In this document: positions 27,506 through 53,886 of the stretch, in pieces | Numbering within the stretch: the stretch's first letter is position 1 | How the letters are laid out: each line of letters begins with the position of its first letter | Assembly (NCBI GenBank): GCA_030625085.1 | Contig: DAOURK010000009.1 | Coordinates: 1,237-65,236 of the forward strand | Length of the DNA: 64,000 bases | Source: Pseudomonadota bacterium | GTDB lineage: Bacteria > SZUA-182 > DTGQ01 | Direction: 5' to 3' | Notes under the pieces: generated by a model | Database searches by the model: none | Seen by the model: only the letters and a program-made list of their open reading frames with translations | Told to the model about the DNA's origin: nothing | Program-made: the position numbers and the translations under genes

Positions 27506-27877
27506 TTATCCTTGGTAATTAACGTAGATCCTTGCTTTCTGGCGGTTAATAATCCGGCCCGCAGGATCACCATGGAAATTTCCAGGCAACCTGTTGCTTG
27601 CAATAGCAATTTTAGGCATTATTGGCAGTAGGGAAATACCATGCGTAGTTAACGCCCTGTTTACCCATACCATGCAATCAATCTCAAAAGTTATTCTTCC
27701 TTTCGCCTCCAATATCACGATTCCCCATACTGATATGACTAATAATTTAAGACAAGTCTCTTTAAAGGCCGTCTCAATTGTTTTTAAACATTTTGATGCC
27801 CCCAACTGCTCATTGCCGTTCATGAGCTAAAGCCAACTATGCGTATCAAGAAGCACCGCTTTTGGGGTTTTACTCAT
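27506..27877 (-). pseudogene. vapC: VapC (PIN) toxin pseudogene
   Basis: MSKTPKAVLLDTHSWL*LMNG...ISVW...FHGDPAGRII, with an in-frame TAG at 27827-27829. Confidence 0.8.
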
Positions 27878-28096
27878 CGACATTCCATTTTTCCTTGATA
27901 GGCTGCACAATGCGCTGTTAATGGCAACTGTTCCTTTTAAATATCCAAAAACCGGACAGGGAGGTTGCACTTCAATAGGGATAAGTTTGATGACCGGTTT
28001 GCCGCGCTTAGTTATTATTACTTCTTCTTGATTTTTGCGGATATCATCCATGCGTTTGAGAGACTTCGCCTTGAACTACCCGGCAGCAATTTTCAT
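27870..28096 (-). pseudogene. Phd/YefM antitoxin pseudogene
   Basis: MKIAAG*FKAKSLKRMDDI...VIITKRGKPVIKL. TAG at 28076-28078 plus a frameshift before the IVQPIKEKWNVDE tail. Confidence 0.8.
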
Positions 28097-28128
28097 TTTA
28101 GGATTCCTTAATTGTGACCATTTATATA

Positions 28129-28341
28129 TTACCTCAATCTTTTTTTTAATTCCTCTACATCGTTTATGTCTAATAGTTCGGCGCCTATTTGGTTCAGCTT
28201 ACTAAAATTTTTAATTGATTTTATGTGTTTTTTCAGATTAGGAGAAAGGGCACCAAATTTTTTTTTGATTTGATTTAGGATTAAAAGCTGCATATTTTCC
28301 ATACCCTTTTCCATGCCCTTTTTTTCATATACTGTAATCAT
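28129..28341 (-). CDS. Stand-alone C-terminal (DUF4351-like / RpnS-like) domain of an Rpn-family nuclease, copy 1
   Basis: MITVYEKKGMEKG...LILNQIKKKFGALSP...ELLD. Own SD GAGGT. Matches the tail of the 37191-37793 frame. Confidence 0.7.
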   Translation of the reverse strand: MITVYEKKGMEKGMENMQLLILNQIKKKFGALSPNLKKHIKSIKNFSKLNQIGAELLDINDVEELKKRLR

Positions 28342-28353
28342 ATCTTTTACCTC

Positions 28354-28480
28354 GGGAAAAAAAGGGCACAGGGCACAAGGCGTAAGGGGAAAAAGGAGGG
28401 CTTAGGGCTCAAGGCGCAGGGCATAGGGCAAAAAGAAGGGCTTAGGGCTCAAGGCTTGGGGTGCAGGGGAACGGGCTTGG
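28354..28480 (+). repeat. G-rich heptamer tract T1 (NNAGGGC)
   Basis: ACAGGGC ACAAGGC GTAAGGG...TTAGGGC TCAAGGC GCAGGGC ATAGGGC AAAAAGA AGGGC TTAGGGC TCAAGGC. Confidence 0.9.
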
Positions 28481-28815
28481 ATGAGTCGGGTTAACATGCC
28501 GGAAATGCGTTTACATTCTTTTTCAATGTGATCAAAGTTTTGTTTGGATAGGTAACCTATTTCGAAAGCGATAATGGATTGTGTCAAAACTTCCGCTGTG
28601 GATCCTTTGGCAGTGTAAAAGAACTTGACTGCCTGTTTGTCAGTGTTAAGTTCGTCGCCTTCTGCAATATTACTAGAGATAGAGACAGATGCTCGCCGAA
28701 TTTGGTCTTTAAGGCCATCGTCATTCGCGAAGGCGCCTTGATTAGTTAATTTGTAAATTAAGACGGCGAGGTTTTTTGAATGCTGCCAAACGTTTAGTTC
28801 ACGAAATTTTCCCAT
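28402..28815 (-). CDS. Four helix bundle protein (23S rRNA-IVP / Avd-fold family)
   Basis: FRELNVWQ...LKDQIRRASVSISSNIAEG...AKGSTAEVLTQ. The reading frame runs on into tract T1. Confidence 0.9.
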   Translation of the reverse strand: MGKFRELNVWQHSKNLAVLIYKLTNQGAFANDDGLKDQIRRASVSISSNIAEGDELNTDKQAVKFFYTAKGSTAEVLTQSIIAFEIGYLSKQNFDHIEKECKRISGMLTRLIQARSPAPQALSPKPFFLPYALRLEP

Positions 28816-28826
28816 CGCCTGATTTC

Positions 28827-29204
28827 TTATAAATATTTAATTATTTCATCTATGACATTCGCTATTTCAGGCATATGAGTGCAAATTATTGTTCCATCTC
28901 TCGTATGTTTATGTGACTTACACCTTAATGCCGGTTTATGCAAAGCGTTATCATATCTGAAGATGAGTTTTCCATCTCTATCCAGGTATTGATAAGAATA
29001 ACTCACTTTATCTATTGTATATTTGGCATCTATATATTCTTGGATATGAAAAACCGAATTGTCTACGAGGATAATTTTGGCTTTTATAACGGCTTGTTTG
29101 CGTGCCCGCATTTCTTCTTTAAATTCAACAGCCTCCGTATATCCATAATCTCTAAGCCTTTCTAAGGCTCGTTGAAATGTTTCAAGGTAATTACGAAGTG
29201 ACAT
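28827..29204 (-). CDS. DUF6516/TumE-like putative toxin, copy 1
   Basis: YSYQY...LIFRYDNALH...HKHT motif. Confidence 0.7.
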   Translation of the reverse strand: MSLRNYLETFQRALERLRDYGYTEAVEFKEEMRARKQAVIKAKIILVDNSVFHIQEYIDAKYTIDKVSYSYQYLDRDGKLIFRYDNALHKPALRCKSHKHTRDGTIICTHMPEIANVIDEIIKYL

Positions 29205-29511
29205 GCGCGATACTTCTTAATACAGTTAAGTCTTCTTTTAATTTAATAAATAAATAATACTCTCCCGCCCATTCAACATATTCAATATCTTTTCCCTTTA
29301 AATCTTCAGCAGTCCAATTTTCTATGAACTCATCAGATGAGATATTGTATTTTTTTTCAAACTTTTTAAGCCGCTCTTTGGCAAGCTTAAGACTATATTT
29401 AATACGCAGGGTTTCTGTCTCAATAACCTCCTTGATAAATTTAACTGCCTTATCGGGCTTATTTGTCTCCAAAACTATTTTGGCCATTGTTTCCTCACTC
29501 TTAATTTCCAA
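29191..29511 (-). CDS. Putative antitoxin partner (TumA-like), copy 1
   Basis: LKKFEKKYNISSDEF...EYVEWAGE. Overlaps the downstream toxin gene. Confidence 0.65.
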   Translation of the reverse strand: MEIKSEETMAKIVLETNKPDKAVKFIKEVIETETLRIKYSLKLAKERLKKFEKKYNISSDEFIENWTAEDLKGKDIEYVEWAGEYYLFIKLKEDLTVLRSIAHVTS

Positions 29512-29551
29512 ATACTATAGGTGACTAGTTAACCTTTTTCCTTATTTCCAT

Positions 29552-29779
29552 TTATATTGCATAATATTTTCTCAATCTTTTTTTTAATTCCTCTACATCG
29601 TTTATGTCTAATAATTCGGCGCCTATTTGGTTCAGCTTACTGAAATTTTTTATAGATTTTATACGTTTTTTTAGATCGGGAGAAAGGGTACCAAATTTTT
29701 TTTTGATTTGATTTAGGATTAAAAGCTGCATATTTTCCATGCCCTTTTCCATGCCTTTTTTCTCATATACAGTAATCAT
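29552..29779 (-). CDS. Stand-alone RpnS-like / DUF4351-like domain, copy 2
   Basis: Near-identical to 28129-28341, with the same GAGGTAAAAGATATG start. Confidence 0.7.
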   Translation of the reverse strand: MITVYEKKGMEKGMENMQLLILNQIKKKFGTLSPDLKKRIKSIKNFSKLNQIGAELLDINDVEELKKRLRKYYAI

Positions 29780-29800
29780 ATCTTTTACCTCTAAAAAAAT

Positions 29801-29888
29801 AAGGGTTTAGGGAATAAAAAAGGGCTTAGGGCTTAGGGAATGAAAAAGGGCGTAGGGCTTAGGGCATAGGGCTTAAGGAACGTAGGGC
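29801..29888 (+). repeat. G-rich heptamer tract T2
   Basis: TTAGGGA..AGGGC TTAGGGC TTAGGGA..AGGGC GTAGGGC TTAGGGC ATAGGGC..GTAGGGC. Confidence 0.9.
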
Positions 29889-30045
29889 CGGTATCAAGCG
29901 CTAATTGTAATATTGTACCACCATTTGGACCATAAAGTTTTGTTGGAATTAAAATTAATCCTTTTTCTGCGTTAAAGGAGTGCTCACAATACTATAGCCA
30001 TTTTTTCAGGTTGTGGCCCAATATACAAAATAGCAGAATGTAAAT
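29888..30045 (-). pseudogene. Partial duplicate of the DUF5678-like 3' end and the retropepsin 5' end, truncated at the catalytic DTG
   Basis: Homologous to about 33672-33830. Reads ...ILQLALDTG and then enters tract T2. Confidence 0.8.
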
Positions 30046-30062
30046 CCTCTATATATTATCTT

Positions 30063-30422
30063 TTATATTATCTTTAATTTTTCCGAAACTATAACAAAAG
30101 CCCTTTCTACAAATTCTTCTATGGTAACCGCTTCTTCGGCAATTTTAGATTTGGCATGTTCATCCGGGCTTTCAAAAGGATGAAAATGCCATTGGCCAAA
30201 AATATAATCTTGGCCAAAAATTCTCCTATCATTTAAGATAAGAGCGTAACTTTTTTTGGGTTTTTTTATGTTTACATATATTTGAACAAATAATTCCTTT
30301 AAAAAGTGAAGCCTCGCTTTTATGATAGATTTTGTTTTCTCAATAATTTCCGATTCTATAACGATATCAAACTGGGAAATTTCTTCTAAATTTCGAAATA
30401 TCTCCTCAATGCTTTCTTTCAT
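30063..30422 (-). CDS. TumE/DUF6516-like putative toxin
   Basis: SYALI...IFGQD...WHFHPF His-rich motif; coupled to an upstream small gene. Confidence 0.55.
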   Translation of the reverse strand: MKESIEEIFRNLEEISQFDIVIESEIIEKTKSIIKARLHFLKELFVQIYVNIKKPKKSYALILNDRRIFGQDYIFGQWHFHPFESPDEHAKSKIAEEAVTIEEFVERAFVIVSEKLKII

Positions 30423-30724
30423 TCCATTTCCTTAATTTCTTCCTCTATATCCTCTAAAACAGTTACAGACATATCCCAGTCAAAGTAATCTCTTTCGATT
30501 TCGTAATTCATTTCTCTGTCTTTATATACTTTTTCAAAATTTTCAAATTTCATATTATATTTTTTTTCAAAATTCTTTACCATAAATATATATTTATTTT
30601 TTTTTCTTATTAGTTCTCTGTTTATCAATTCTTTAATTGCATCAACTATATCTCCTTTTTGGGTAATATTAACAAGCTCTTTTTGTACTTTCTCTGATAA
30701 AACAACATTGTTTGATATTGACAT
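30419..30724 (-). CDS. Putative antitoxin (FEKKY...DYFDW type), copy 1
   Basis: KNFEKKYNMKFENF...ERDYFDWDM. 4-bp overlap with the toxin gene. Confidence 0.6.
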   Translation of the reverse strand: MSISNNVVLSEKVQKELVNITQKGDIVDAIKELINRELIRKKNKYIFMVKNFEKKYNMKFENFEKVYKDREMNYEIERDYFDWDMSVTVLEDIEEEIKEME

Positions 30725-31135
30725 TTAAAATCCCTTCCTCAAAATACTCCTTGCTCTTAAAAGGTGCCTTTATAGTTCAGTACCTATTCGACGCAGCTTA
30801 TTAAAATTTTTTACAGCTTATAGGCGCTCTTCGATCTCAGGGGGGGTGGGCCAAAAATAAACACCTTTTTCATTATTTTGTTCCCTGACAATAGCTGTAT
30901 TGATCATGCTTTTCAGAAGCATTGCTTAATTTCCCTTCTGTTGCTCGTTCACCCATTGTATAAAGAAGCTTATCTGCTGATGATAGGTTTTTTGGTTAAA
31001 TAACACTGGTTCCATAGGATCAATTTGCCCTTTTTTGTAAATACCTTAGATTGTTGTATACATTGCAAATCTCCTCGCTTCTTTATAAATAATATCGGAG
31101 TTTTATTCGCAAAGCAATAGGTATATTCATCTGTT
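30725..31135 (-). repeat. About 400-bp segment duplicated at about 35918-36328; includes a degenerate Rpn C-terminal remnant
   Basis: Near-identical by eye to the second copy. Minus strand reads EIEERL*AVKNFNKLRRIGTEL, similar to IKSIKNFSKLNQIGAEL. Confidence 0.65.
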
Positions 31136-31140
31136 CCCCA

Positions 31141-31163
31141 GGTCCCAGGCCCTTGGCCCCCAG
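31141..31163 (-). repeat. Short heptamer tract T3 in the opposite orientation
   Basis: Minus strand CTGGGG GCCAAGG GCCTGGG ACC, directly after the truncated HEPN frame. Confidence 0.55.
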
Positions 31164-31361
31164 TTAGGTTGTTTGAATTATAATATCACTCAGTCTGGCA
31201 AACCTACTGGTAAAGGCTTCAAATCTATCAAGTTCATCAAGAGTATATTGTTCTTTAATGGCTATCTTTGTGCACGCAGCATAAGAGTAATTCATAATCT
31301 CTGTTGCATTTTCCAACAAAGATAATTCCTCTTTTAATAAACTAAGCAGATCCTGAATCAC
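31164..31361 (-). pseudogene. Truncated HEPN-like nucleotidyltransferase substrate-binding protein
   Basis: DELDRFEAFTSRFARLSDIIIQ, then a stop at 65 aa (about half the expected length); paired with the MNT gene. Confidence 0.65.
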
Positions 31362-31639
31362 AATAAAATGCCCTTTTTATAGGCAATTTTTACAAAAGGA
31401 TTGGTTGTATCCTTGGCAAGAATAAGATGTATCTTTTGTTCACCTAACCTTTTATAAAATCTTTGCATAATCTTTATTTTGTCTTCATAACCTAATTTTT
31501 GGGAAATTATCAACAGGTCTATATCTCCGCCTTTTTGCCTGTCATCAACACGTGAACCAAAAAGGTAAGTTTTTGCATAATTATCTAAATCGTGAATACA
31601 ATCTTTAATTGTTCTAACTTCATTCTCTTTTAAACGCAT
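31358..31639 (-). CDS. Minimal nucleotidyltransferase (MNT)
   Basis: YLFGSRVDDRQKGGDIDLL. Confidence 0.88.
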   Translation of the reverse strand: MRLKENEVRTIKDCIHDLDNYAKTYLFGSRVDDRQKGGDIDLLIISQKLGYEDKIKIMQRFYKRLGEQKIHLILAKDTTNPFVKIAYKKGILL

Positions 31640-31663
31640 AATTTCAACGTATCATATTTTCAT

Positions 31664-31849
31664 TTAGGCGACAAGGGGAAAAAGATGACAGCGAGGTCTG
31701 GCGGTTTTTTGTTGCGACCAGCCCTTTTCTTCCACTAAAAGCTTTATTCTACCGGCCAGCACTAACACTGTGAGCCTTTTGCAGTGGGTGGTATTGAGCT
31801 TGGCTGCCAGCGCCAAGGCCTCGTCGTGGCTGATGTCCTTTACCTGCAC
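31664..31849 (-). pseudogene. XRE/HTH antitoxin-like fragment
   Basis: RIKLLVEEKGWSQQKTA (start of an HTH) followed by unrelated sequence. Confidence 0.45.
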
Positions 31850-32058
31850 TTCGATTTCCTGATCCCCACGTTTTTTGGCACGAAATGATATGAACGTGCT
31901 TCTTTAAATGTCTCCAGTAAAGGTCCGCTTTTTGAAAAAGGGTCTTTTATTATGGCTGGTAAATGATTAAAAACAATTTCTTTTTGTATTGAATACGGTA
32001 ATCTTTTTAAATCTCTTTTCGCAGACAGCGAGAGTTCAAGGTTATATGGTTTAACCAT
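31840..32058 (-). pseudogene. RelE/ParE toxin, 3'-truncated
   Basis: YNLELSLSAKRDLKRLP...DPF...RSYHF, then diverges. Confidence 0.65.
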
Positions 32059-32272
32059 AATCTCTCTTTAATTCCTCTAAAGTGATAAATTGCTCTCCAC
32101 GTTTCTTGGCTTCAATAGTTTCTTTGGTTCTTTTATTAACATATTCTAAAAATGAGCTGTCTTCCTTGATCTTTAAAAATTCAATAAAATGTAAAACTTC
32201 CTTCTTCCCTTTCTCTGGTAAACTTTTGATATTTTTTAAAATTAGCTCATTAAGTTCAAATGTTCCCGCCAT
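32051..32272 (-). CDS. DUF2281-like antitoxin
   Basis: IKSLPEKGKKEVLHFIEFLK...FITLEELKRDYG; overlaps the RelE-like gene. Confidence 0.6.
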   Translation of the reverse strand: MAGTFELNELILKNIKSLPEKGKKEVLHFIEFLKIKEDSSFLEYVNKRTKETIEAKKRGEQFITLEELKRDYG

Positions 32273-32358
32273 AACTATTCTCCATTTAATTAGTTATTTT
32301 ACTTTATCAATCAGAGAAAAGATTGTCAATGGGCCAGGGGGTATGTCAAACTACTTTG

Positions 32359-32510
32359 ACTTATTAAATCTCCTCGTTTTTGGTTTAATCACGGGTTTTT
32401 ATTTTAGCCGCAGACACACGCAGACTTGCGCAGACTATTTATTTTTAATAATTATTATTGTGGGCTTCAGGTAAATGTTGTAAATATTCGTTTGATTGCA
32501 GCCCTAATTT
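32359..32510. repeat. Internally deleted copy of 34463-34770, containing CGCAGAC x3 (10-bp period)
   Basis: CGCAGAC at 32409, 32419 and 32429. Shares tttttggtt..atcac.ggtttttatt and cttcaggtaaat..attcgtttgatt with the 34.6 kb copy. Confidence 0.75.
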
Positions 32511-32519
32511 CAAATAAAA

Positions 32520-32600
32520 AGGGCTTAGGGCTTACGGCTTAGGGGAATATAGAAGGTTTTAGGGCTTAGGGCTTAGGGCTTAGGGCATAGGGAAAAAAAG
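32520..32600 (+). repeat. G-rich heptamer tract T4 with four perfect TTAGGGC units
   Basis: TTAGGGC x4 at 32559-32586, then ATAGGG; fits the G3N1-7 x4 quadruplex pattern. Confidence 0.92.
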
Positions 32601-32606
32601 GTTTAT

Positions 32607-33002
32607 TTAAATCCAATTTTCAATTTTAAGTCCTTTTATCCGTTTAAAATGCCTTTGATTATTTGTAACAAGCGTAAAATCATTTACCAAAGCACAAGCG
32701 GCAATAAACAGATCAGCATCATCAATAATTTCCCCTCTCTTTATCAACATCGCTTTTAATTTACCAAAGGTTTCGCATATTGCCTGGTTTGATTCAATAA
32801 TCCCCAATTTGCTTTCCAATAACCTAACATTGGATAAATTTTCCTTGACTTTCTGTGACTTATGGGCGCCATAATAAAGTTCACTTAAAGTCAGAAACGA
32901 AGTATATATATTATCAAGGCCGATATCTAAGGCTTTCTTTTCGATATCTGTATTTCCCTTTATCCAATAAACACAGATATTAGTATCCAAAAGGTAAGTC
33001 AT
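32607..33002 (-). CDS. vapC: VapC PIN-domain toxin
   Basis: YLLDTNICVY, TLSELYYG, DDADLFIAA, LVTNNQRHF. Confidence 0.92.
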   Translation of the reverse strand: MTYLLDTNICVYWIKGNTDIEKKALDIGLDNIYTSFLTLSELYYGAHKSQKVKENLSNVRLLESKLGIIESNQAICETFGKLKAMLIKRGEIIDDADLFIAACALVNDFTLVTNNQRHFKRIKGLKIENWI

Positions 33003-33253
33003 AATTCAACTTTACGTCCGCCAAAGCCTGTTCTGTGAGAATATATGTCTTCTATTATCTCTTCTGCACGCCTTTCATCTTCCCAGATTCCACAAAGGCC
33101 ACTGCTTTTTTCATGTCTATTTTTTTTTGCCTTCACTGTGAATATACCTTCTTGGAGGGAACGAAGCATTTTTATTACTTGGGGTATAACTTCGCTCGGC
33201 ATTTTACGTATTTCTTCAAGAACTTTTTCCTCATATTTAGTCCTGGTTTGCAT
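32999..33253 (-). CDS. VapB-like antitoxin (DUF2281-like)
   Basis: 4-bp overlap with vapC; LCGIWEDERRAEEII. Confidence 0.65.
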   Translation of the reverse strand: MQTRTKYEEKVLEEIRKMPSEVIPQVIKMLRSLQEGIFTVKAKKNRHEKSSGLCGIWEDERRAEEIIEDIYSHRTGFGGRKVEL

Positions 33254-33346
33254 AAATTTTCCTTCAATATTTTATCTTTTTTTTAATTAGTTTCAATTGA
33301 TTTTATTTTATCAGCATTGGAAAAACTTGTCAATTTAAGCTAAGAC

Positions 33347-33378
33347 AGGGGCATAAGGCTCAGGGCGTAGGGCATAGA
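33347..33378 (+). repeat. G-rich heptamer tract T5
   Basis: CAGGGGC ATAAGGC TCAGGGC GTAGGGC ATAG. Confidence 0.8.
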
Positions 33379-33392
33379 AAATTTCAACTCAA

Positions 33393-33774
33393 TTATTCTA
33401 TATTTACAAATCCATCTCGAAGGTCAACTACTATTTTATGTCCTCGAAAAAAATCTAAGCCAAGGACTCCATCTACTGTAACACTAAGTAAGGTATGACA
33501 AAGTACAGAAAAATTCCAACGTTTCAACCCCATGGCCTCGATTTCTTCTATTGCGATTTGCGGTACAAATTCTATTCCACTCCCCGTCGTCATTTTGATT
33601 CGTTCTGATAACGATAGCCGGATCATAACCCAAAAGCACCAAGATATCCCAGTTCACAATACATCTAGTTGCGCCGGTATCCAATGCTAGTTGTAATATT
33701 GTATCACCATTTGGTCCCCAAAATTTTGTTGGAATTAAAATTAATCCTTTTTCTGGGTTAAAGGAGAGACTCAC
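33393..33774 (-). pseudogene. Retropepsin-like aspartyl protease, frameshifted near 33615
   Basis: LALDTGAT in one frame; MTTGSG...DGVLGLDFF in another. Confidence 0.8.
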
Positions 33775-34013
33775 AATACTACAGCTATCTCTTCAGGTTG
33801 TATTCCTGTATACAAAATAGCAGTATGTTTAGGACATAATTTCCTTGCCTTGCGGTAAACTTCGTCTCTATCTTTACTATGCCAAAGTACCTTACCCTTT
33901 ATCACATTCAGGGTTTCATCAGTTTCCGGATCTTCCAAAAGAACCCATTCGGATTTAAACCGATTCTTGATTTCTGCTAAAATTGCAATTTTACTCATTA
34001 TCACACCCCACAA
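33771..34013 (-). CDS. Small DUF5678-like protein, partner of the retropepsin gene
   Basis: SEWVLLED...GKVLWHSKDRDEVY...ILYTG; overlaps the protease start. Confidence 0.55.
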   Translation of the reverse strand: MWGVIMSKIAILAEIKNRFKSEWVLLEDPETDETLNVIKGKVLWHSKDRDEVYRKARKLCPKHTAILYTGIQPEEIAVVL

Positions 34014-34134
34014 ATAGTGGTTTTATGCTAATTCAACTGTTTCGGTTTTTTTCTTTTTTGTCTTTATTTTTATCCCTGCTGTGTATAATAAAATTTTAGT
34101 CTTTACAGCGAGCATAGTCAAGAAAATGAATAAA

Positions 34135-34212
34135 GAAGGCGGAGGGAAAAAGAAGGGCTTAGGGGACAAAAAGGCGTAAGGCGAAGGGGGAAAAAGAAGG
34201 ACGCAGGGCTTA
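34135..34212 (+). repeat. G-rich heptamer tract T6
   Basis: GGAGGGA AAAAGA AGGGC TTAGGGG..GTAAGGC GAAGGGG..GCAGGGC. Confidence 0.8.
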
Positions 34213-34294
34213 TAAGATCTTTTTGTGGATATTCAGGTAGGGTTTCGATTATGTCTAAGGCCTCTTGAAATGTTACGTTTCGTTGACTAGACAT
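34212..34294 (-). pseudogene. 5' fragment of a small antitoxin-like gene, truncated at tract T6
   Basis: MSSQRNVTFQEALDIIETLPEYPQKDLI, then enters the repeat. Confidence 0.5.
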
Positions 34295-34420
34295 CTAAAT
34301 ATATCCTTATATAAAATTTATTGAACAATATTATATTTTATGTAAGGCTTTTTTTGCCTGATTTAATTCCCTCATTTTTTCCTTTTTTATACCTTTACGA
34401 AATTTTGGCCGACGTGTGAC

Positions 34421-34618
34421 CTAAATTTTTTTTGCCCAGGCCCTCGCGTCGAAAATCTGCCGACTTATTAAATTTCCTCCTTTTGATTTTAGGAATGTTA
34501 CACTGTTCCTCATAGCCGGCTTCGTTAATTTTCGTTTTTGATCGATCCTGGCGCGGGGGTAGATTGTTTCGTCCAGGACGATGTTGGTGCTGGGGAGTGT
34601 GGTTTTTGGTTTGATCAC
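34421..34618 (-). pseudogene. ParB-N-like gene fragment
   Basis: IVLDETIYPRARIDQKR, then degenerate; preceded by CGCAGAC x2 (34636, 34646). Confidence 0.45.
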
Positions 34619-34914
34619 TGGTTTTTATTTTTGGCCGCAGACTCACGCAGACAAAAGCGAACTATTTATTTTTACTAATTATTATTGTGCGCTTCAGGTA
34701 AATTTATATACATTCGTTTGATTTTTGGCTTTCAGGTGAAGTTATAAACATTCGTTTGATTTGTGGCCAACAAGCGCAATATTCACCATTATGGCTTAAC
34801 ACCCTTCCGGCATTTTCGGCAAATGGTTTTACATAGCGTCAGCAACTGCCTTAAACCATAGCGTAAAACTAATCGCCAGGCCCTTCTCCTTTAAGCCCTA
34901 CTTTGGTTGGGCTT

Positions 34915-35208
34915 TTATTTTCTACTTCGACCATAGGCAGGATGCCTGCGCTGGTGCTTAACTACCGTTATCCGAAGTACGTCTTTTTCCAAGACTCGGA
35001 AGTAAATGACGTAAGGGAAACGCTTCATTAACGACCGTCGAACATTTGTCTCCACAATCTTCCAGCGGGTTGGCATTGATGCGATTTTCAAAATCTGCAG
35101 TTCAAATTCATTGAGAAATTCTGCCCCTAATCCATGAGTACACTCGTTAAAATATTTGATAATCTCACGTAACTCACGTTCAATTGCCGGATGATATTCA
35201 ACCCTCAT
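34915..35208 (-). CDS. RelE/ParE family toxin
   Basis: VEYHPAIEREL...RRSLMKRFPYVIYF...VKHQRRHPAY. Confidence 0.88.
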   Translation of the reverse strand: MRVEYHPAIERELREIIKYFNECTHGLGAEFLNEFELQILKIASMPTRWKIVETNVRRSLMKRFPYVIYFRVLEKDVLRITVVKHQRRHPAYGRSRK

Positions 35209-35428
35209 TTTCGTAGCTTATTCATTAATTCTTTGTGGGACAACGGTACCACATCGCCCCGTTCAATTTCCGCATCACGTTGCTTTGCAAGAGCAATAGC
35301 TTCCTCATCAGAAATATCAGCAGGGAGAATATATGGATCCTCAAGACTTCCCCATATTGTCTCGGCAAGAATTGCTCTATCTTGCGAACTGAGTCGCAAA
35401 GCCTCACTGGCTAACTGATCAATGTTCA
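35205..35428 (-). CDS. Addiction-module antitoxin (TIGR02574-like); start probably MNIDQL
   Basis: ALRLSSQDRAILAETIWGSL...RDAEIERG. Confidence 0.8.
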
Positions 35429-35611
35429 TAAAAAAGCCTCCCTTAGACAATGCCCATGATATGATAAATAGCAAAAGCAATATCATAAATATAAATTTAT
35501 TTTTTTTTACGTCCGCCTAAGCTCACTATGGTTTAATAATATCGGAATTTTAGTTGCAAGGCAATCGGCATTTTTTATATTCAGCGCAAAGCGCGCTGAG
35601 AAATTAATTTT

Positions 35612-35917
35612 TTAAATCAAGAACCAACCTTCATAATCCTTATCCTCTAAAACAGTTACAGCCATATCCCAGTCAAAGTAATCTTTTTCGATTTCGTAAT
35701 TCATTTCTCTGTCTTTATATACTTTTTCAAAACTTTCAAATTTCATATTATATTTTTTTTCAAAATTCTTTACCATAAATATATACTTATTTTTTTTTCT
35801 TTTTAGCTCTCTGTTTATCAATTCTTTAATTGCATCAACTATATCTCTTTTTTTGGTAATATTAACAAGCTCTTTTTGTACTTTCTCTGATAAAACAACA
35901 TTGTTTGATACTGACAT
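35612..35917 (-). CDS. Putative antitoxin, copy 2 (altered C-terminus, no toxin partner)
   Basis: Matches 30419-30724 up to VTVLED, then a different tail. Confidence 0.6.
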   Translation of the reverse strand: MSVSNNVVLSEKVQKELVNITKKRDIVDAIKELINRELKRKKNKYIFMVKNFEKKYNMKFESFEKVYKDREMNYEIEKDYFDWDMAVTVLEDKDYEGWFLI

Positions 35918-36324
35918 TTAAAATTCCTTCCTCAAAAGACTCCTTGCTCTTAAAAGGTGCCTTTATAGTTCAGTGCCTATTCGACGCAGCTTATTAATAT
36001 TTTTTATAGCTTTTAGGCGCTCTTCTATCTCAGGGGGGTGAGACAAAAATAAACACCTTTTTCATTATTTTGTTCCCTGACAATAGCGGTATTGATCATG
36101 CTTTTCAGAAACATTGCTTAATTTCCCTTCTATTGCTCGTTCACCCATTGTATAAAGAAGCTTATCTGCTGATGATAGGTTTTTTGGTTAAATAACACTG
36201 ATTCCATAGGATCAATTTGCCCTTTTTTGTAAATACCTTAGATTGTTGTATACATCGCAAATCTCCTCGCTTCTTTATAAATAATATCGGAGTTTTATTC
36301 GCAAAGCAATAGGTATATTCATCT

Positions 36325-36436
36325 GTTCTTTAAGGCCGTAGTCATTAGCAAATATGCCTTTCCCTGTTAATTTATAAATAAATACGGCGAGGTCCTTTGC
36401 ATGCTGCCATACTTTAAGCTCCTGAAATTTTCCCAT
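36325..36436 (-). pseudogene. 5' fragment of a second four helix bundle gene
   Basis: MGKFQELKVWQHAKDLAVFIYKLTGKGIFANDYGLKEQ, then joins the duplicated 400-bp segment at GAACAGAT. Confidence 0.8.
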
Positions 36437-36447
36437 CGCCTAATTTT

Positions 36448-36825
36448 TTATAAATATTTAATTATTTCATCTATGACATTCGATATTTCAGGCATATGAG
36501 TGCAAATTATTGTTCCATCTCTCGTATGTTTATGTGATTTACACCTTAATGCTGGTTTATGCAAAGCGTTATCATATCTGAAGATGAGTTTTCCATCTCT
36601 GTCCAGGTATTGATAAGAATAACTCACTTTATCTATTGTATATTTGGCATCTATATATTCTTGGATATGAAAAACCGAATTGTCTACGAGGATAATTTTG
36701 GCTTTTATAACTGCTTGTTTGCGTGCCCGCATTTCTTCTTTAAATTCAACAGCCTCTGTATATCCATAATCTCTAAGCCTTTCTAAGGCTTGTTGAAATG
36801 TTTCAAGGTAATTACGAAGCAACAT
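36448..36825 (-). CDS. DUF6516/TumE-like toxin, copy 2
   Basis: Three amino-acid differences from 28827-29204. Confidence 0.7.
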   Translation of the reverse strand: MLLRNYLETFQQALERLRDYGYTEAVEFKEEMRARKQAVIKAKIILVDNSVFHIQEYIDAKYTIDKVSYSYQYLDRDGKLIFRYDNALHKPALRCKSHKHTRDGTIICTHMPEISNVIDEIIKYL

Positions 36826-37132
36826 GCGCGATACTTCTTAATACAGTTAAGTCTTCTTTTAATTTAATAAATAAATAATATTCTCCCGCCCATTCAACAT
36901 ATTCAATATCTTTTCCCTTTAAATCTTCAGCAGTCCAATTTTTTATGAACTCATCAGATGAGATATTGTATTTTTTTTCAAACTTTTTAAGCCGCTCTTT
37001 GGCAAGTTTAAGACTATAGTTTATACGGAGGGTTTCTGTCTCAATAACCTCCTTGATAAATTTAACTGCCTTATCGGGCTTATTTGACTCCAAAACTATT
37101 TTGGCCATTGTTTCCTCACTCTTGATTTCCAA
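36812..37132 (-). CDS. TumA-like antitoxin, copy 2
   Basis: Four amino-acid differences from 29191-29511. Confidence 0.65.
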   Translation of the reverse strand: MEIKSEETMAKIVLESNKPDKAVKFIKEVIETETLRINYSLKLAKERLKKFEKKYNISSDEFIKNWTAEDLKGKDIEYVEWAGEYYLFIKLKEDLTVLRSIAHVAS

Positions 37133-37190
37133 ACTCTATAGGCAACTAGTTAACCTTTTTCCTTGTTTCCATTTATATTGCATAGTATTT

Positions 37191-37793
37191 TCATAACCTT
37201 TTTTTTAATTCCTCTACGTCGTTTATGTCTAATAGTTCGGCGCCTATTTGGTTCAACTTGCTGAAATTTTTAATTGATTTTATGCGCTTTTTCAGATCGG
37301 GAGAAAGGGCACCAAATTTTTTTTTGATTTGATTTAAGATTAAAAGCTGCATATTTTCCATGCCCTTTTCCATGCCCTTTTCCATGCCCTTTTCAATGCC
37401 CTTTTCAATGCCCTTTTTCTCATATAGAGTAATCATATCTTTTACCTCCCTGTAACTTCCATCATGATCTAGGGTTTTGAAAAACTGTTCTTCGTCTTTT
37501 TTTGTTAAGACCATCGAGTCATTGATAAAATTTATCAGGATGCTTTGCCTTGCTTCATCAATTCGGGAAGTCAAGATCAATCTTAAAGCCTCCATCTTGA
37601 CTTTTGTTCTCTCTTTTTTATTGAAACCCATTTTTACCATCAAGGCATAGGCTAATGGGTTATTAACTGTTAAATATTTTCTATAATCAAGTTCTTTGAG
37701 CTTTATTTTTTTGTAACGAAAATTTAAATAAATTTCATCATATTCTATCTTGTATTCACGATCTATCTCTTTTTTCCATAAATGATCATCAGC
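37191..37793 (-). pseudogene. 5'-truncated Rpn-family (PD-(D/E)XK recombination-promoting nuclease / putative transposase) gene with intact internal RpnS-like start at 37436
   Basis: Open frame from directly after the ATPase stop: ADDHLWKKEID...KIKLKELDYRKYLTVNNPLAYALMVKM...YREVKDMITLYEKKG(IEKG)2(MEKG)2. Embedded SD AGGGAGGT at 37444-37451. Confidence 0.7.
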
Positions 37794-53743: not shown

Positions 53744-53860
53744 AGGAGCATCGATCAGAGCTTAAGTTAATGACATTGTAGTATGGATTATAAGCTAAAA
53801 TAAGAATTGCCGGATAGGAATGAAAAGGTAACCAATTTAAGATGGACAGGCTAAAATATA

Positions 53861-53886
53861 AATTATGAATTATGAATTATGAATTA
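53861..53886 (+). repeat. AATTATG heptamer tandem (x3.7)
   Basis: aattatgaattatgaattatgaatta. Confidence 0.8.

Follow-up and report, generated by a model that had tools for sequence, protein, structure and literature searches.

A four-helix-bundle gene that reads into a heptamer tract: probably a decayed, one-armed cassette in a bacterial toxin-antitoxin island

A 64,000-nucleotide stretch of a Pseudomonadota bacterium genome (GCA_030625085.1, contig DAOURK010000009.1, positions 1,237 to 65,236; here called the window, to which all positions without a contig or locus label refer) carries a gene for a four-helix-bundle (4HB) protein of the PF05635/TIGR02436 family, the reading frame of which continues into a tract of 7-nt repeats (T1). 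The gene is probably a decayed, one-armed cassette resembling the intervening sequences (IVS) of 23S rRNA, accompanied by solo arms. This reading draws on direct observations of the anatomy of the locus, the positional homology of T1 to the 3' arms of related genes, the lack of a partner arm, and how generally the cassette recurs among homologues. An original prediction, made from the DNA of the window, took the fusion of gene and tract as a pointer to function and named the protein the best candidate trans-acting factor for binding or propagating the tracts.

The 4HB gene and its fusion to tract T1

The gene and the tract are made up as follows.
28402-28815, - strand: 4HB open reading frame (ORF), 137 aa, PF05635/TIGR02436 four-helix-bundle protein
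28468..28815, - strand: conserved 4HB core, codons 1-116, with terminal RLIQARS, defined by profile matches, homologue alignment and structural model
28402..28467, - strand: C-terminal extension peculiar to this copy, codons 117-137 and stop codon, encoded by T1 heptamers
28363..28473, + strand: tract T1, ~16 ARGGCNN units in three sub-arrays parted by A-runs, C-rich in gene sense

The assignment of the product to the 23S rRNA-IVP (TIGR02436) family, already made in the original prediction, is confirmed by profile searches. PF05635 (23S_rRNA_IVP) is matched at E 9.2e-33 with 113.1 bits (cut-off 33.8) by ORF residues 5-109, which cover profile positions 1-105 of 106, and TIGR02436 (four helix bundle protein) is matched at E 1.1e-31 with 109.3 bits (cut-off 24). 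A profile search of the 4.94-Mb genome returned only this ORF and a truncated copy of it as PF05635 matches. In an alignment with 37 homologues, to which the window protein is 63-76% identical, 34 columns are invariant, including R40, G53, D54 and three residues (R41, S45 and N49) of an RxxxSxxxNxxE motif that is present as R41-ASV-S45-ISS-N49-IA-E52; E52 is nearly invariant. The published form of the motif is GxxRxxxSxxxNxxE (PMC3936711), and its leading G is not found at the published spacing in the window protein.

An AlphaFold2 model of the monomeric 137-aa protein, built on the 37 homologues, has a mean predicted local distance difference test score (pLDDT) of 86, with values above 90 across most of residues 11-115, and comprises four main helices (residues 9-24, 33-55, 59-85, and 91-115). 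By Foldseek, with TM-scores normalised to the target, the top match was Xcc0516 (2GSC; TM 0.90, 34% identity) and the second BT_0352 (2RLD; TM 0.85). The model also matched bAvd (4DWL; TM 0.84, root-mean-square deviation 1.8 Å, 8% identity) and the Avd chains of a diversity-generating retroelement (DGR) ribonucleoprotein (8UB7; TM 0.82), in agreement with the Avd-like fold that had been claimed. At the sequence level, 2GSC was the sole relative in the PDB (E 8e-13), and no match to 4DWL was obtained at E 0.01 or better. The six RVT_1 matches of the genome all lie on other contigs, with no reverse transcriptase on the contig of the window or among the ORFs of 26-38 kb, and no template/variable repeat pair was seen beside the 4HB gene. 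The protein is thus a member of the IVP/S23p family with the Avd fold, and not an Avd.

T1 is built of units with a five-base core and two variable bases, and it contains 49 G and 18 C in 111 nt on the + strand. When one mismatch at most is allowed, the window has 26 occurrences of AGGGCNNAGGGC where 1.9 are expected; 0 of 100 shuffles reach 26, and 22 of the 23 matches at 28363-34209 are on the + strand, with a sole exception at 31149. It had been claimed that the ORF has no stop before T1, and this is the case: after MLTRLIQARS the frame reads PAPQALSPKPFFLPYALRLEP through the tract before it reaches a stop codon. The resulting extension (residues 117-137) is Pro-rich and unique to the window copy in the homologue alignment, and the model predicts disorder for it (pLDDT about 50; range 50-52).

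The origin of the extension is apparent from comparison with the homologous locus L045. The two DNA sequences are near-identical through the LIQARS codons (common gcccgttcc) and unrelated immediately afterwards; therefore, the window copy lacks the native tail and its stop. Its frame ends ~20 codons into the arm, where a GCCCTAA unit places TAA in frame. Because each 7-nt unit moves the frame on by a single base, and because the variable positions of the heptamers often spell TAA, TAG or TGA, an incoming frame usually stops within a few units. Other frames enter arrays too. A 58-aa ORF at 34118-34294 (- strand) likewise runs into an array (T5), the host genes upstream of the L040 and L044 cassettes end within the 5' arm (in KEGLRLRA and PEGIRYKA, each followed by the stop), and the homologues P0023, P0060, P0120, and L061 have arm-encoded tails (PKPYALRPMP, SPKPQTLNPKP, TPNTQHPTPNT). 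To judge from these sequences, the fusion is best explained as an incidental by-product of the loss of tail and stop. With an extension that is copy-specific and predicted to be disordered, and with other ORFs entering arrays as well, its use as a pointer to function does not hold up.

It is highly improbable that the extension is functional, for example as a Pro-rich tail that varies in phase or length through slippage of the tract. Gain or loss of a unit would indeed change the tail, since a heptamer shifts the frame by one base, and similar tails recur in P0120, P0023, and P0060 (SPKPQTLNPKP, PKPYALRPMP). However, the tails are conserved in neither sequence nor length and follow directly from the unit sequence, and disorder is predicted for the one in the window.

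Armed cassettes among homologues and the missing 5' arm

Homologue DNA was inspected at four loci within L040-L045 and at 24 of 26 GTDB loci (L048-L073). The closest homologues are 63-78% identical to the window protein, are mostly 116-127 aa long and cover 84-92% of the query, and in the alignment they end in RLIQARS followed by short, usually basic and mutually unrelated tails. At most loci a G-rich heptamer array with the unit (A/G)AGGCNN lies 15-60 nt upstream of the start (e.g. aaggcttaaggcttagggcataaggc), and a second array of the complementary class, with the unit NNGCC(C/T)T, starts at or in the stop codon (e.g. ...gtg aag ccg TAA gccgtaagccttacgcc). T1 begins directly after codon 116, and both its position and its unit class are those of the 3' arms in L040-L045. 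Because unit class and exact position match in this way, T1 is, on sequence criteria, the native 3' arm of the 4HB gene, and the earlier view that gene and tract belong together is upheld to that extent. The cassettes at L040 and L044 sit in sugar-nucleotide/polysaccharide operons (DegT aminotransferase, GFO/IDH oxidoreductase, hexapeptide acetyltransferase).

The association extends well beyond close relatives. In a sample of 26 PF05635 loci, drawn from over 20 unrelated genomes, with arrays called by Tandem Repeats Finder (TRF), period-7 arrays were present within ~150 nt of 17 of the 26 genes and on both sides of 13, so the check proposed with the original prediction, a search for short-period repeats flanking homologues, gave a positive result. 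The remainder of the same loci held 16 period-7 arrays in 66 kb, which makes the density near the gene ~15-fold higher, and further loci show arrays by eye that are too degenerate for TRF. Arms typically have 4-5 units. The units differ among loci (AGCGAAT, AAGGTAA, AGTTAAC, AGAAGAC, GAACTGA, AAATTCG and others) and also between paralogous cassettes within one genome (G023, G029, G045); therefore, the unit goes with the cassette and not with the host. In the window's clade and its neighbours (22 loci), cognate 5' and 3' flanks pair with a mean energy of -56.2 kcal/mol, compared to -40.0 kcal/mol for non-cognate flanks (permutation p about 1e-4), and cognate arms are thus complementary. The link between the 4HB family and period-7 arrays is real, though not obligatory.

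These results bear on a very different explanation, in which the tracts are autonomous, slippage-prone repeats, capable of forming G-quadruplexes on the G-rich strand, that accumulate in intergenic DNA and at recombination junctions of a repeat-rich island, so that adjacency to the 4HB gene is coincidental. Several tracts do lie at truncation junctions or module ends unrelated to a 4HB gene, the orphan arrays of Desulfoluna limicola are long, perfect runs like simple sequence repeats that abut ordinary genes, and dispersed heptamer repeats with no known partner have been described (PMC4679880, PMC4692102). For T1 itself, however, the explanation is largely refuted by arm position, unit class and complementarity: an array of the same unit class stands exactly at the 3'-arm position in every close homologue examined, around 4HB genes of many phyla the density of flanking arrays is ~15 times that of the local background, and cognate arms are complementary. 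We consider it very unlikely.

At the other end of the window gene the cassette is incomplete. The features concerned, together with a second, truncated copy of the gene, are these.
28816..28826, - strand: 11-nt junction of TumE stop and 4HB start, where homologues have the 5' heptamer arm and a Shine-Dalgarno (SD) sequence
28827-29204, - strand: TumE toxin, PF20126, E 2.4e-16
29191-29511, - strand: TumA-like antitoxin, NF045776 TumA, E 1.6e-8
36329..36436 (ORF 36275-36436), - strand: truncated second 4HB copy, first 36 codons, PF05635 model positions 1-36, E 4.7e-6

The TumA-like and TumE genes (28827..29511) lie directly upstream of the 4HB gene in the same orientation, TumE is complete (NF045777 positions 6-122 of 122), and the neighbours from 27827 to 37643 are all on the minus strand, which places the gene, as expected for the armed cassette, between co-directional genes. 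The cassette's own SD sequence is gone from the window copy, as are the 5' array and with it the complementary terminal repeats. In duplex calculations the upstream 150 nt do not pair with T1 (-22.4 kcal/mol, z = -0.5); the 5' arms of homologues reach -50 to -95 kcal/mol against the same tract. Within the window there is no C-rich (+ strand) array of the T1 class, and the fold of 28270-28490 is no better than that of shuffled sequence (z = 0.12). Promoter and terminator scans of 27900-30000 gave nothing above shuffles.

Candidates for a partner arm were rejected. Opposite-strand matches elsewhere in the window are single and degenerate (4153, 14541, 31149), a CCCAGGN x3 run at 31140-31166 is not complementary to T1 or T2, and the repeat (GGGCATGGAAAA)n in the coding sequence of the Rpn/DUF4351 genes offers a complementarity of just 6-11 nt plus A/U runs. 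The CCCAGGN run lies exactly at the right end of a duplicated 296-nt block, on the strand opposite to the AGGGCNN tracts and with an unlike unit.

A truncated second copy had been placed at 36325-36436, and it is genuine, with 36 codons of homology over 36329-36436. It breaks at its junction with the duplicated 296-nt block (repeat family D3, 30841-31136 vs 36033-36328, 98% identical), and a second repeat family, D4, joins 28700-28999 to 36321-36620 at 89% identity. The truncated copy has the identical 11-nt TumE junction (36437-36447), which argues that the loss of the 5' arm is older than the duplication.

We therefore favour, as the likely history of the locus, the decay of an armed cassette. 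The intact form would have been a ~117-125-aa 4HB ORF between an upstream G-rich array and a C-rich complement running from the stop codon. By analogy with the IVS of 23S rRNA, the arms of intact cassettes would pair in the transcript, and RNase III would cut the paired stem. A rearrangement may then have set the ORF 11 nt behind the intact TumE gene, removing the 5' arm and the SD sequence, and loss of a ~8-codon basic tail and the stop would have let the frame run 20 codons into the arm, as far as the TAA supplied by GCCCTAA. Both the arm and the tail losses would have preceded the segmental duplication that yielded the copy at 36329-36436. Since presumably no stem can form at the window copy, the gene would be just the last cistron of a TumA-TumE-4HB transcript, with its translation probably coupled to that of TumE, and the Pro-rich tail would then be neutral.

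Solo tracts and their relation to the gene

Four further tracts (T2-T5) and two DUF4351 mini-genes lie in the same island.
28129..28341, - strand: DUF4351 (RpnS-like) mini-gene, PF14261, E 1.7e-10, with SD sequence and ATG directly after T1
29552-29779, - strand: second DUF4351 mini-gene copy, directly after T2, repeat family D1
29802..29880, + strand: solo tract T2, between DUF4351 mini-gene and truncated retropepsin fragment
32520..32598, + strand: solo tract T3, with its end 9 nt away from the stop of a PIN (VapC) toxin gene, PIN E 1e-17
33348..33375, + strand: short solo tract T4, separated by 18 nt from the stop of a retropepsin-like ORF
34140..34215, + strand: degenerate solo tract T5, entered by the 58-aa ORF 34118-34294 (- strand)

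T2-T5 resemble T1 in unit class, orientation and composite build of sub-arrays and A-runs, and they lie 0-18 nt past the 3' ends of minus-strand modules (the retropepsin fragment, PIN/VapC, the retropepsin-like ORF and the 58-aa ORF, respectively). T1 and T2 border the DUF4351 mini-genes at one and the same point, immediately 5' of the internal SD/ATG, and in a three-way alignment the homology of the mini-genes to the full-length Rpn gene (37191-37643) stops exactly at the tract. Judged by these module-end positions and breaks in Rpn homology, the tracts mark the borders of modules and the points of truncation in a toxin-antitoxin island of mosaic structure. Because of this location, T2-T5 and the tracts found on two other contigs, C42 and C87 (below), all of one unit class, are most likely either remnants or arms that were duplicated locally.

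Several features of the island stand apart from this question. The 58-aa ORF (MSSQRNVTFQEALDIIETLPEYPQKDL...) has no Pfam match, takes its second half from T5, and constitutes a second ORF-tract fusion in the island. The full-length Rpn/DUF4351 gene contains a 12-nt tandem repeat, TTTTCCATGCCC x5.3, at 37354-37417 that encodes (GMEK/GIEK)n, of which the mini-gene copies hold just two units. The U-run ending T1 and T2 pairs with an A-run and GGGCAU in codons 7-10 of the mini-genes, forming a ~16-bp stem (28325-28375 and 29765-29815, - strand) that encloses the mini-gene SD and AUG; the stem could gate RpnS-like translation, or be chance pairing of A/U-runs. A function as Rho-utilisation sites at the 3' ends of modules would fit the five window tracts, which are C-rich in gene sense and follow stops by 0-18 nt, but it is not general: the C42 tract is G-rich in gene sense, as are most of the Desulfoluna orphan arrays.

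Elsewhere in the genome, a 140-nt tract (C42:17740-17880), G-rich in gene sense, lies between an Hsp70-like gene and a gene of unidentified function. At C87:12537-12600 (L047 2538-2600), inverted AGGGNNN/NNNCCCT units form a gene-less hairpin in the gap that separates the stop of a PglX-like gene from the start of a nucleotidyltransferase (MNT-like) gene. The hairpin resembles an 'empty' cassette, and its fold has z = -2.05, with 7 of 200 shuffles folding as well. On the same contig (C87:16175-16202; L047 6176-6203), AGGGRNN x4 lies inside a 1419-aa PglX/BREX-methyltransferase-like ORF and encodes ...STPYALSPNPYIA..., an in-frame heptamer array within a defence gene.

Other heptamer families are present as well. 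The more numerous one, (AATTACG/AATTATG/AATTACA)n with up to 11 copies, forms at least 8 AATTAYG arrays in the genome (window 53857-53886; C126:19545-19616; C207:12028-12107; C207:38966-39020; C242:7165-7236; C137:13274; C9:23563; C95:75567), which at no fewer than 4 loci are followed by a conserved ~45-nt sequence (ctaatgatcggctggaaagccgcataaataaaatgaaaattcc...), and it behaves as a dispersed element with no attached 4HB gene. A (TCAGTTA)7 array at C76:19310-19359 is the reverse complement of the TAACTGA repeat, and an (AAGTCAG)11 array also occurs. None of these three families has a cognate 4HB gene in the genome. Period 7 as such is not in excess, TRF arrays of at least 3 copies numbering 24, against 18, 22 and 48 at periods 6, 8 and 9.

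The wider distribution of gene and tract was compared among genomes. A gene of the PF05635/TIGR02436 family is carried by 26 of 61 diverse genomes and by at least 166 of 401 Desulfobacterota genomes. Tract and 4HB gene of the clade occur together in the genome of the window, and none of the other 60 diverse genomes, 19 of them from the same class, has more than 2 matches to the tract pattern, with 57 having zero. AGGGCNN matches number 49-79 per genome in three Desulfoluna-type genomes that share the protein clade (68-74% identity), compared to at most 1 in three genomes that carry 6-23 4HB genes and whose examined cassettes are of other unit types. Among the 401 Desulfobacterota, the gene is present in 27 of 39 genomes with the tract and in 139 of the 362 that lack it (odds ratio 3.6, p = 2.7e-4, uncorrected for phylogeny, genome size and completeness). 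The strict AGGGCNN pattern misses degenerate arms. A reversed-pattern control (CGGGANN) is itself a heptamer array and was also 4HB-enriched (16/26), which makes it unfit as a neutral control.

By hidden Markov model (HMM) search, 7 of 12 apparent cases of tract without gene do carry a PF05635 gene. By the same search G149 (6.5 Mb), with 17 pattern matches, has none, and neither have the tract-bearing genomes G285 and G331. Tracts in genomes with no such gene, which the original prediction had named as telling against its proposal, are therefore found in some cases, with G149 as at least one large genome of this kind. The AGGGCNN-rich genomes G159, G225, and G447 have only distant 4HB proteins, and their listed tracts are not adjacent to the listed 4HB genes. 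By the strict pattern, which would overlook degenerate arms, unit and protein clade show no strict correspondence: 8 of 12 close-clade genomes are without the pattern, and tract-rich genomes often have only distant 4HB proteins.

The complete genome of Desulfoluna limicola (NZ_AP024488.1; G061) also has tracts away from the gene. At least 15 separate array loci are present, mostly long, perfect (TAAGGGC)n runs of up to ~14 units. Several abut or overlap the stops of ordinary genes (YceG, enoyl-CoA hydratase, GGDEF response regulator, SpoU), with examples at 682263, 1264235, 5436395, 5439252, and 5673582, and most are G-rich in gene sense. Their strand is minus below 1.5 Mb, plus at 2.0-3.3 Mb, and minus above 4.0 Mb. 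Insertion sequences or transposases were considered as neighbours of the Desulfoluna orphan arrays and rejected, as the 370-aa ORFs proved to encode YceG, a GH3 hydrolase and a permease.

Several of these points weigh against a history of cassette decay. D. limicola has no more than three 4HB genes, of which one adjoins an array, and with at least 15 loci mostly beside housekeeping genes, its arrays can evidently spread or arise apart from the decay of cassettes. In the genome of the window, a PF05635 search found no 4HB remnant beside T2-T5 or the C42 and C87 tracts, and the solo tracts cannot be shown to stem from former cassettes. The architecture taken as standard is not uniform, because L050 and L054 have no obvious 5' arm and carry both arrays downstream of the gene. 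Finally, the proposed order of events (loss of the 5' arm, loss of the tail, duplication) is read from two copies only.

The solo tracts would also be explained if the 4HB protein, probably a pentamer like Xcc0516 and Avd, bound arrays as RNA or single-stranded DNA in a unit-specific manner and maintained or propagated them in trans, a possibility that can coexist with cassette decay. The unit class is kept among close protein relatives and drifts as the proteins diverge, the units of paralogous cassettes are cassette-specific, and the solo tracts of this genome share the arm unit class of its sole 4HB gene, with 19 same-class relatives lacking the tract. The Desulfoluna-type genomes and the Desulfobacterota association point in the same direction, arms of 4-5 units are found alongside a pentameric solved homologue, and Avd, a fold match, contacts RNA within the DGR ribonucleoprotein (PDB 8UB7). 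These arguments are countered by the genomes with tracts and no PF05635 gene, by the tract-rich genomes with only distant and non-adjacent 4HB genes, by the AATTAYG, TAACTGA and other arrays that lack a matching cassette in this genome, and by an association test that is blind to genome size, completeness and phylogeny. Additionally, S23p of Coxiella is apparently not made in vivo (PMC4990558). A trans-acting role is thus a minority hypothesis and rather unlikely, and the fusion of gene and tract adds nothing for it.

Relation to known systems and significance

The system most similar to the favoured cassette is the ORF-bearing 23S rRNA IVS of Coxiella burnetii, Leptospira, and Xanthomonas, which encodes proteins of the same family, PF05635 (PMC4990558). 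In Coxiella, the IVS contains an S23p ORF and is closed by a 28-bp terminal stem that RNase III cleaves, and the ORF is preceded by 'a variable number of heptameric repeats' (PMC4990558). Similarly, the homologues of the window gene have the ORF between complementary terminal repeats of about 30 nt, with heptameric repeats upstream as in Coxiella, and in both cases the element lies inside a transcription unit and looks horizontally acquired. In contrast to the IVS, which lies in helix 9, 25 or 45 of a 23S rRNA gene, the window copy is outside an rRNA gene (Rfam finds one tRNA only and no rRNA in the window) and sits in a toxin-antitoxin island inside an exopolysaccharide operon, beside TumE/TumA and a DUF4351 fragment. 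It has the 3' arm only, so that no excisable stem is possible; the arm is composite and about 110 nt long, and arrays of the same class also occur gene-less.

Among proteins, Xcc0516 (2GSC) and BT_0352 (2RLD) share the fold and the RxxxSxxxNxxE motif with the window protein, and 2GSC also its sequence, whereas the window protein has a 21-residue, predicted disordered tail derived from the repeat. Xcc0516 has been described as a homopentamer (PMC4990558), and PDB 2GSC contains five chains. The likeness to bAvd (4DWL, 8UB7) is one of fold, in contrast to the 8% identity and the lack of RVT_1 on the contig of the window. Genes of the 23S_rRNA_IVP type have also been found inside cas operons (PMC3936711).

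The tracts in turn resemble the dispersed heptamer repeats described as TAACTGA intergenic repeats in Beggiatoaceae, Cyanobacteria, and Bacteroidetes (PMC4679880) and as G-rich heptamers in Xanthomonas and Nostoc (PMC4692102). T2-T5, the C42 tract and the Desulfoluna arrays are likewise intergenic period-7 direct repeats with no known binding protein; they differ in the unit, ARGGCNN with a 5-nt core and 2 variable positions, and in forming composite arrays with A-run spacers. Four-helix-bundle genes are mentioned in neither of the two reports, but TAACTGA-like units are the arms of 4HB cassettes at L015, L024, and L033, which ties the family to the TAACTGA repeats of PMC4679880. A literature search for 4HB/IVP proteins together with heptamer repeats found only the remark on heptameric repeats in the Coxiella IVS. 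In the literature searched, an armed 4HB cassette outside rRNA genes is therefore new compared to the published ORF-bearing IVS.

PF05635/TIGR02436 proteins are widespread. Structures have been available since 2006, and yet, to our knowledge, no function has been established for them, and intergenic heptamer repeats likewise lack an explanation. The present locus displays what is probably a decayed cassette, in which ORF-tract fusions would reflect a stop codon shifting within the arm and not a domain fusion. It also combines a single 4HB gene with solo tracts, about eight in number, that share the gene's unit class, in a lineage whose relatives are without them, and it bounds the link between gene and array, with tracts that have no gene and other heptamer families that have no cognate gene.

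A further step would be to regard IVP/S23p pentamers as sequence-specific binders of their own 7-nt arrays, the two together forming a self-propagating gene-array system. We regard this as unlikely. If it were true, 4HB proteins would be the missing partner of the dispersed heptamer repeats (AGGGCNN here and in Desulfoluna, TAACTGA and short tandemly repeated repetitive (STRR)-type sequences elsewhere), solo arrays would be seeded or maintained in trans, and the one-armed copy described here would still be an active source for the five island tracts and those on C42 and C87. With a complete genome, three 4HB genes and at least 15 array loci, Desulfoluna limicola is a candidate organism for work on binding and RNA processing.

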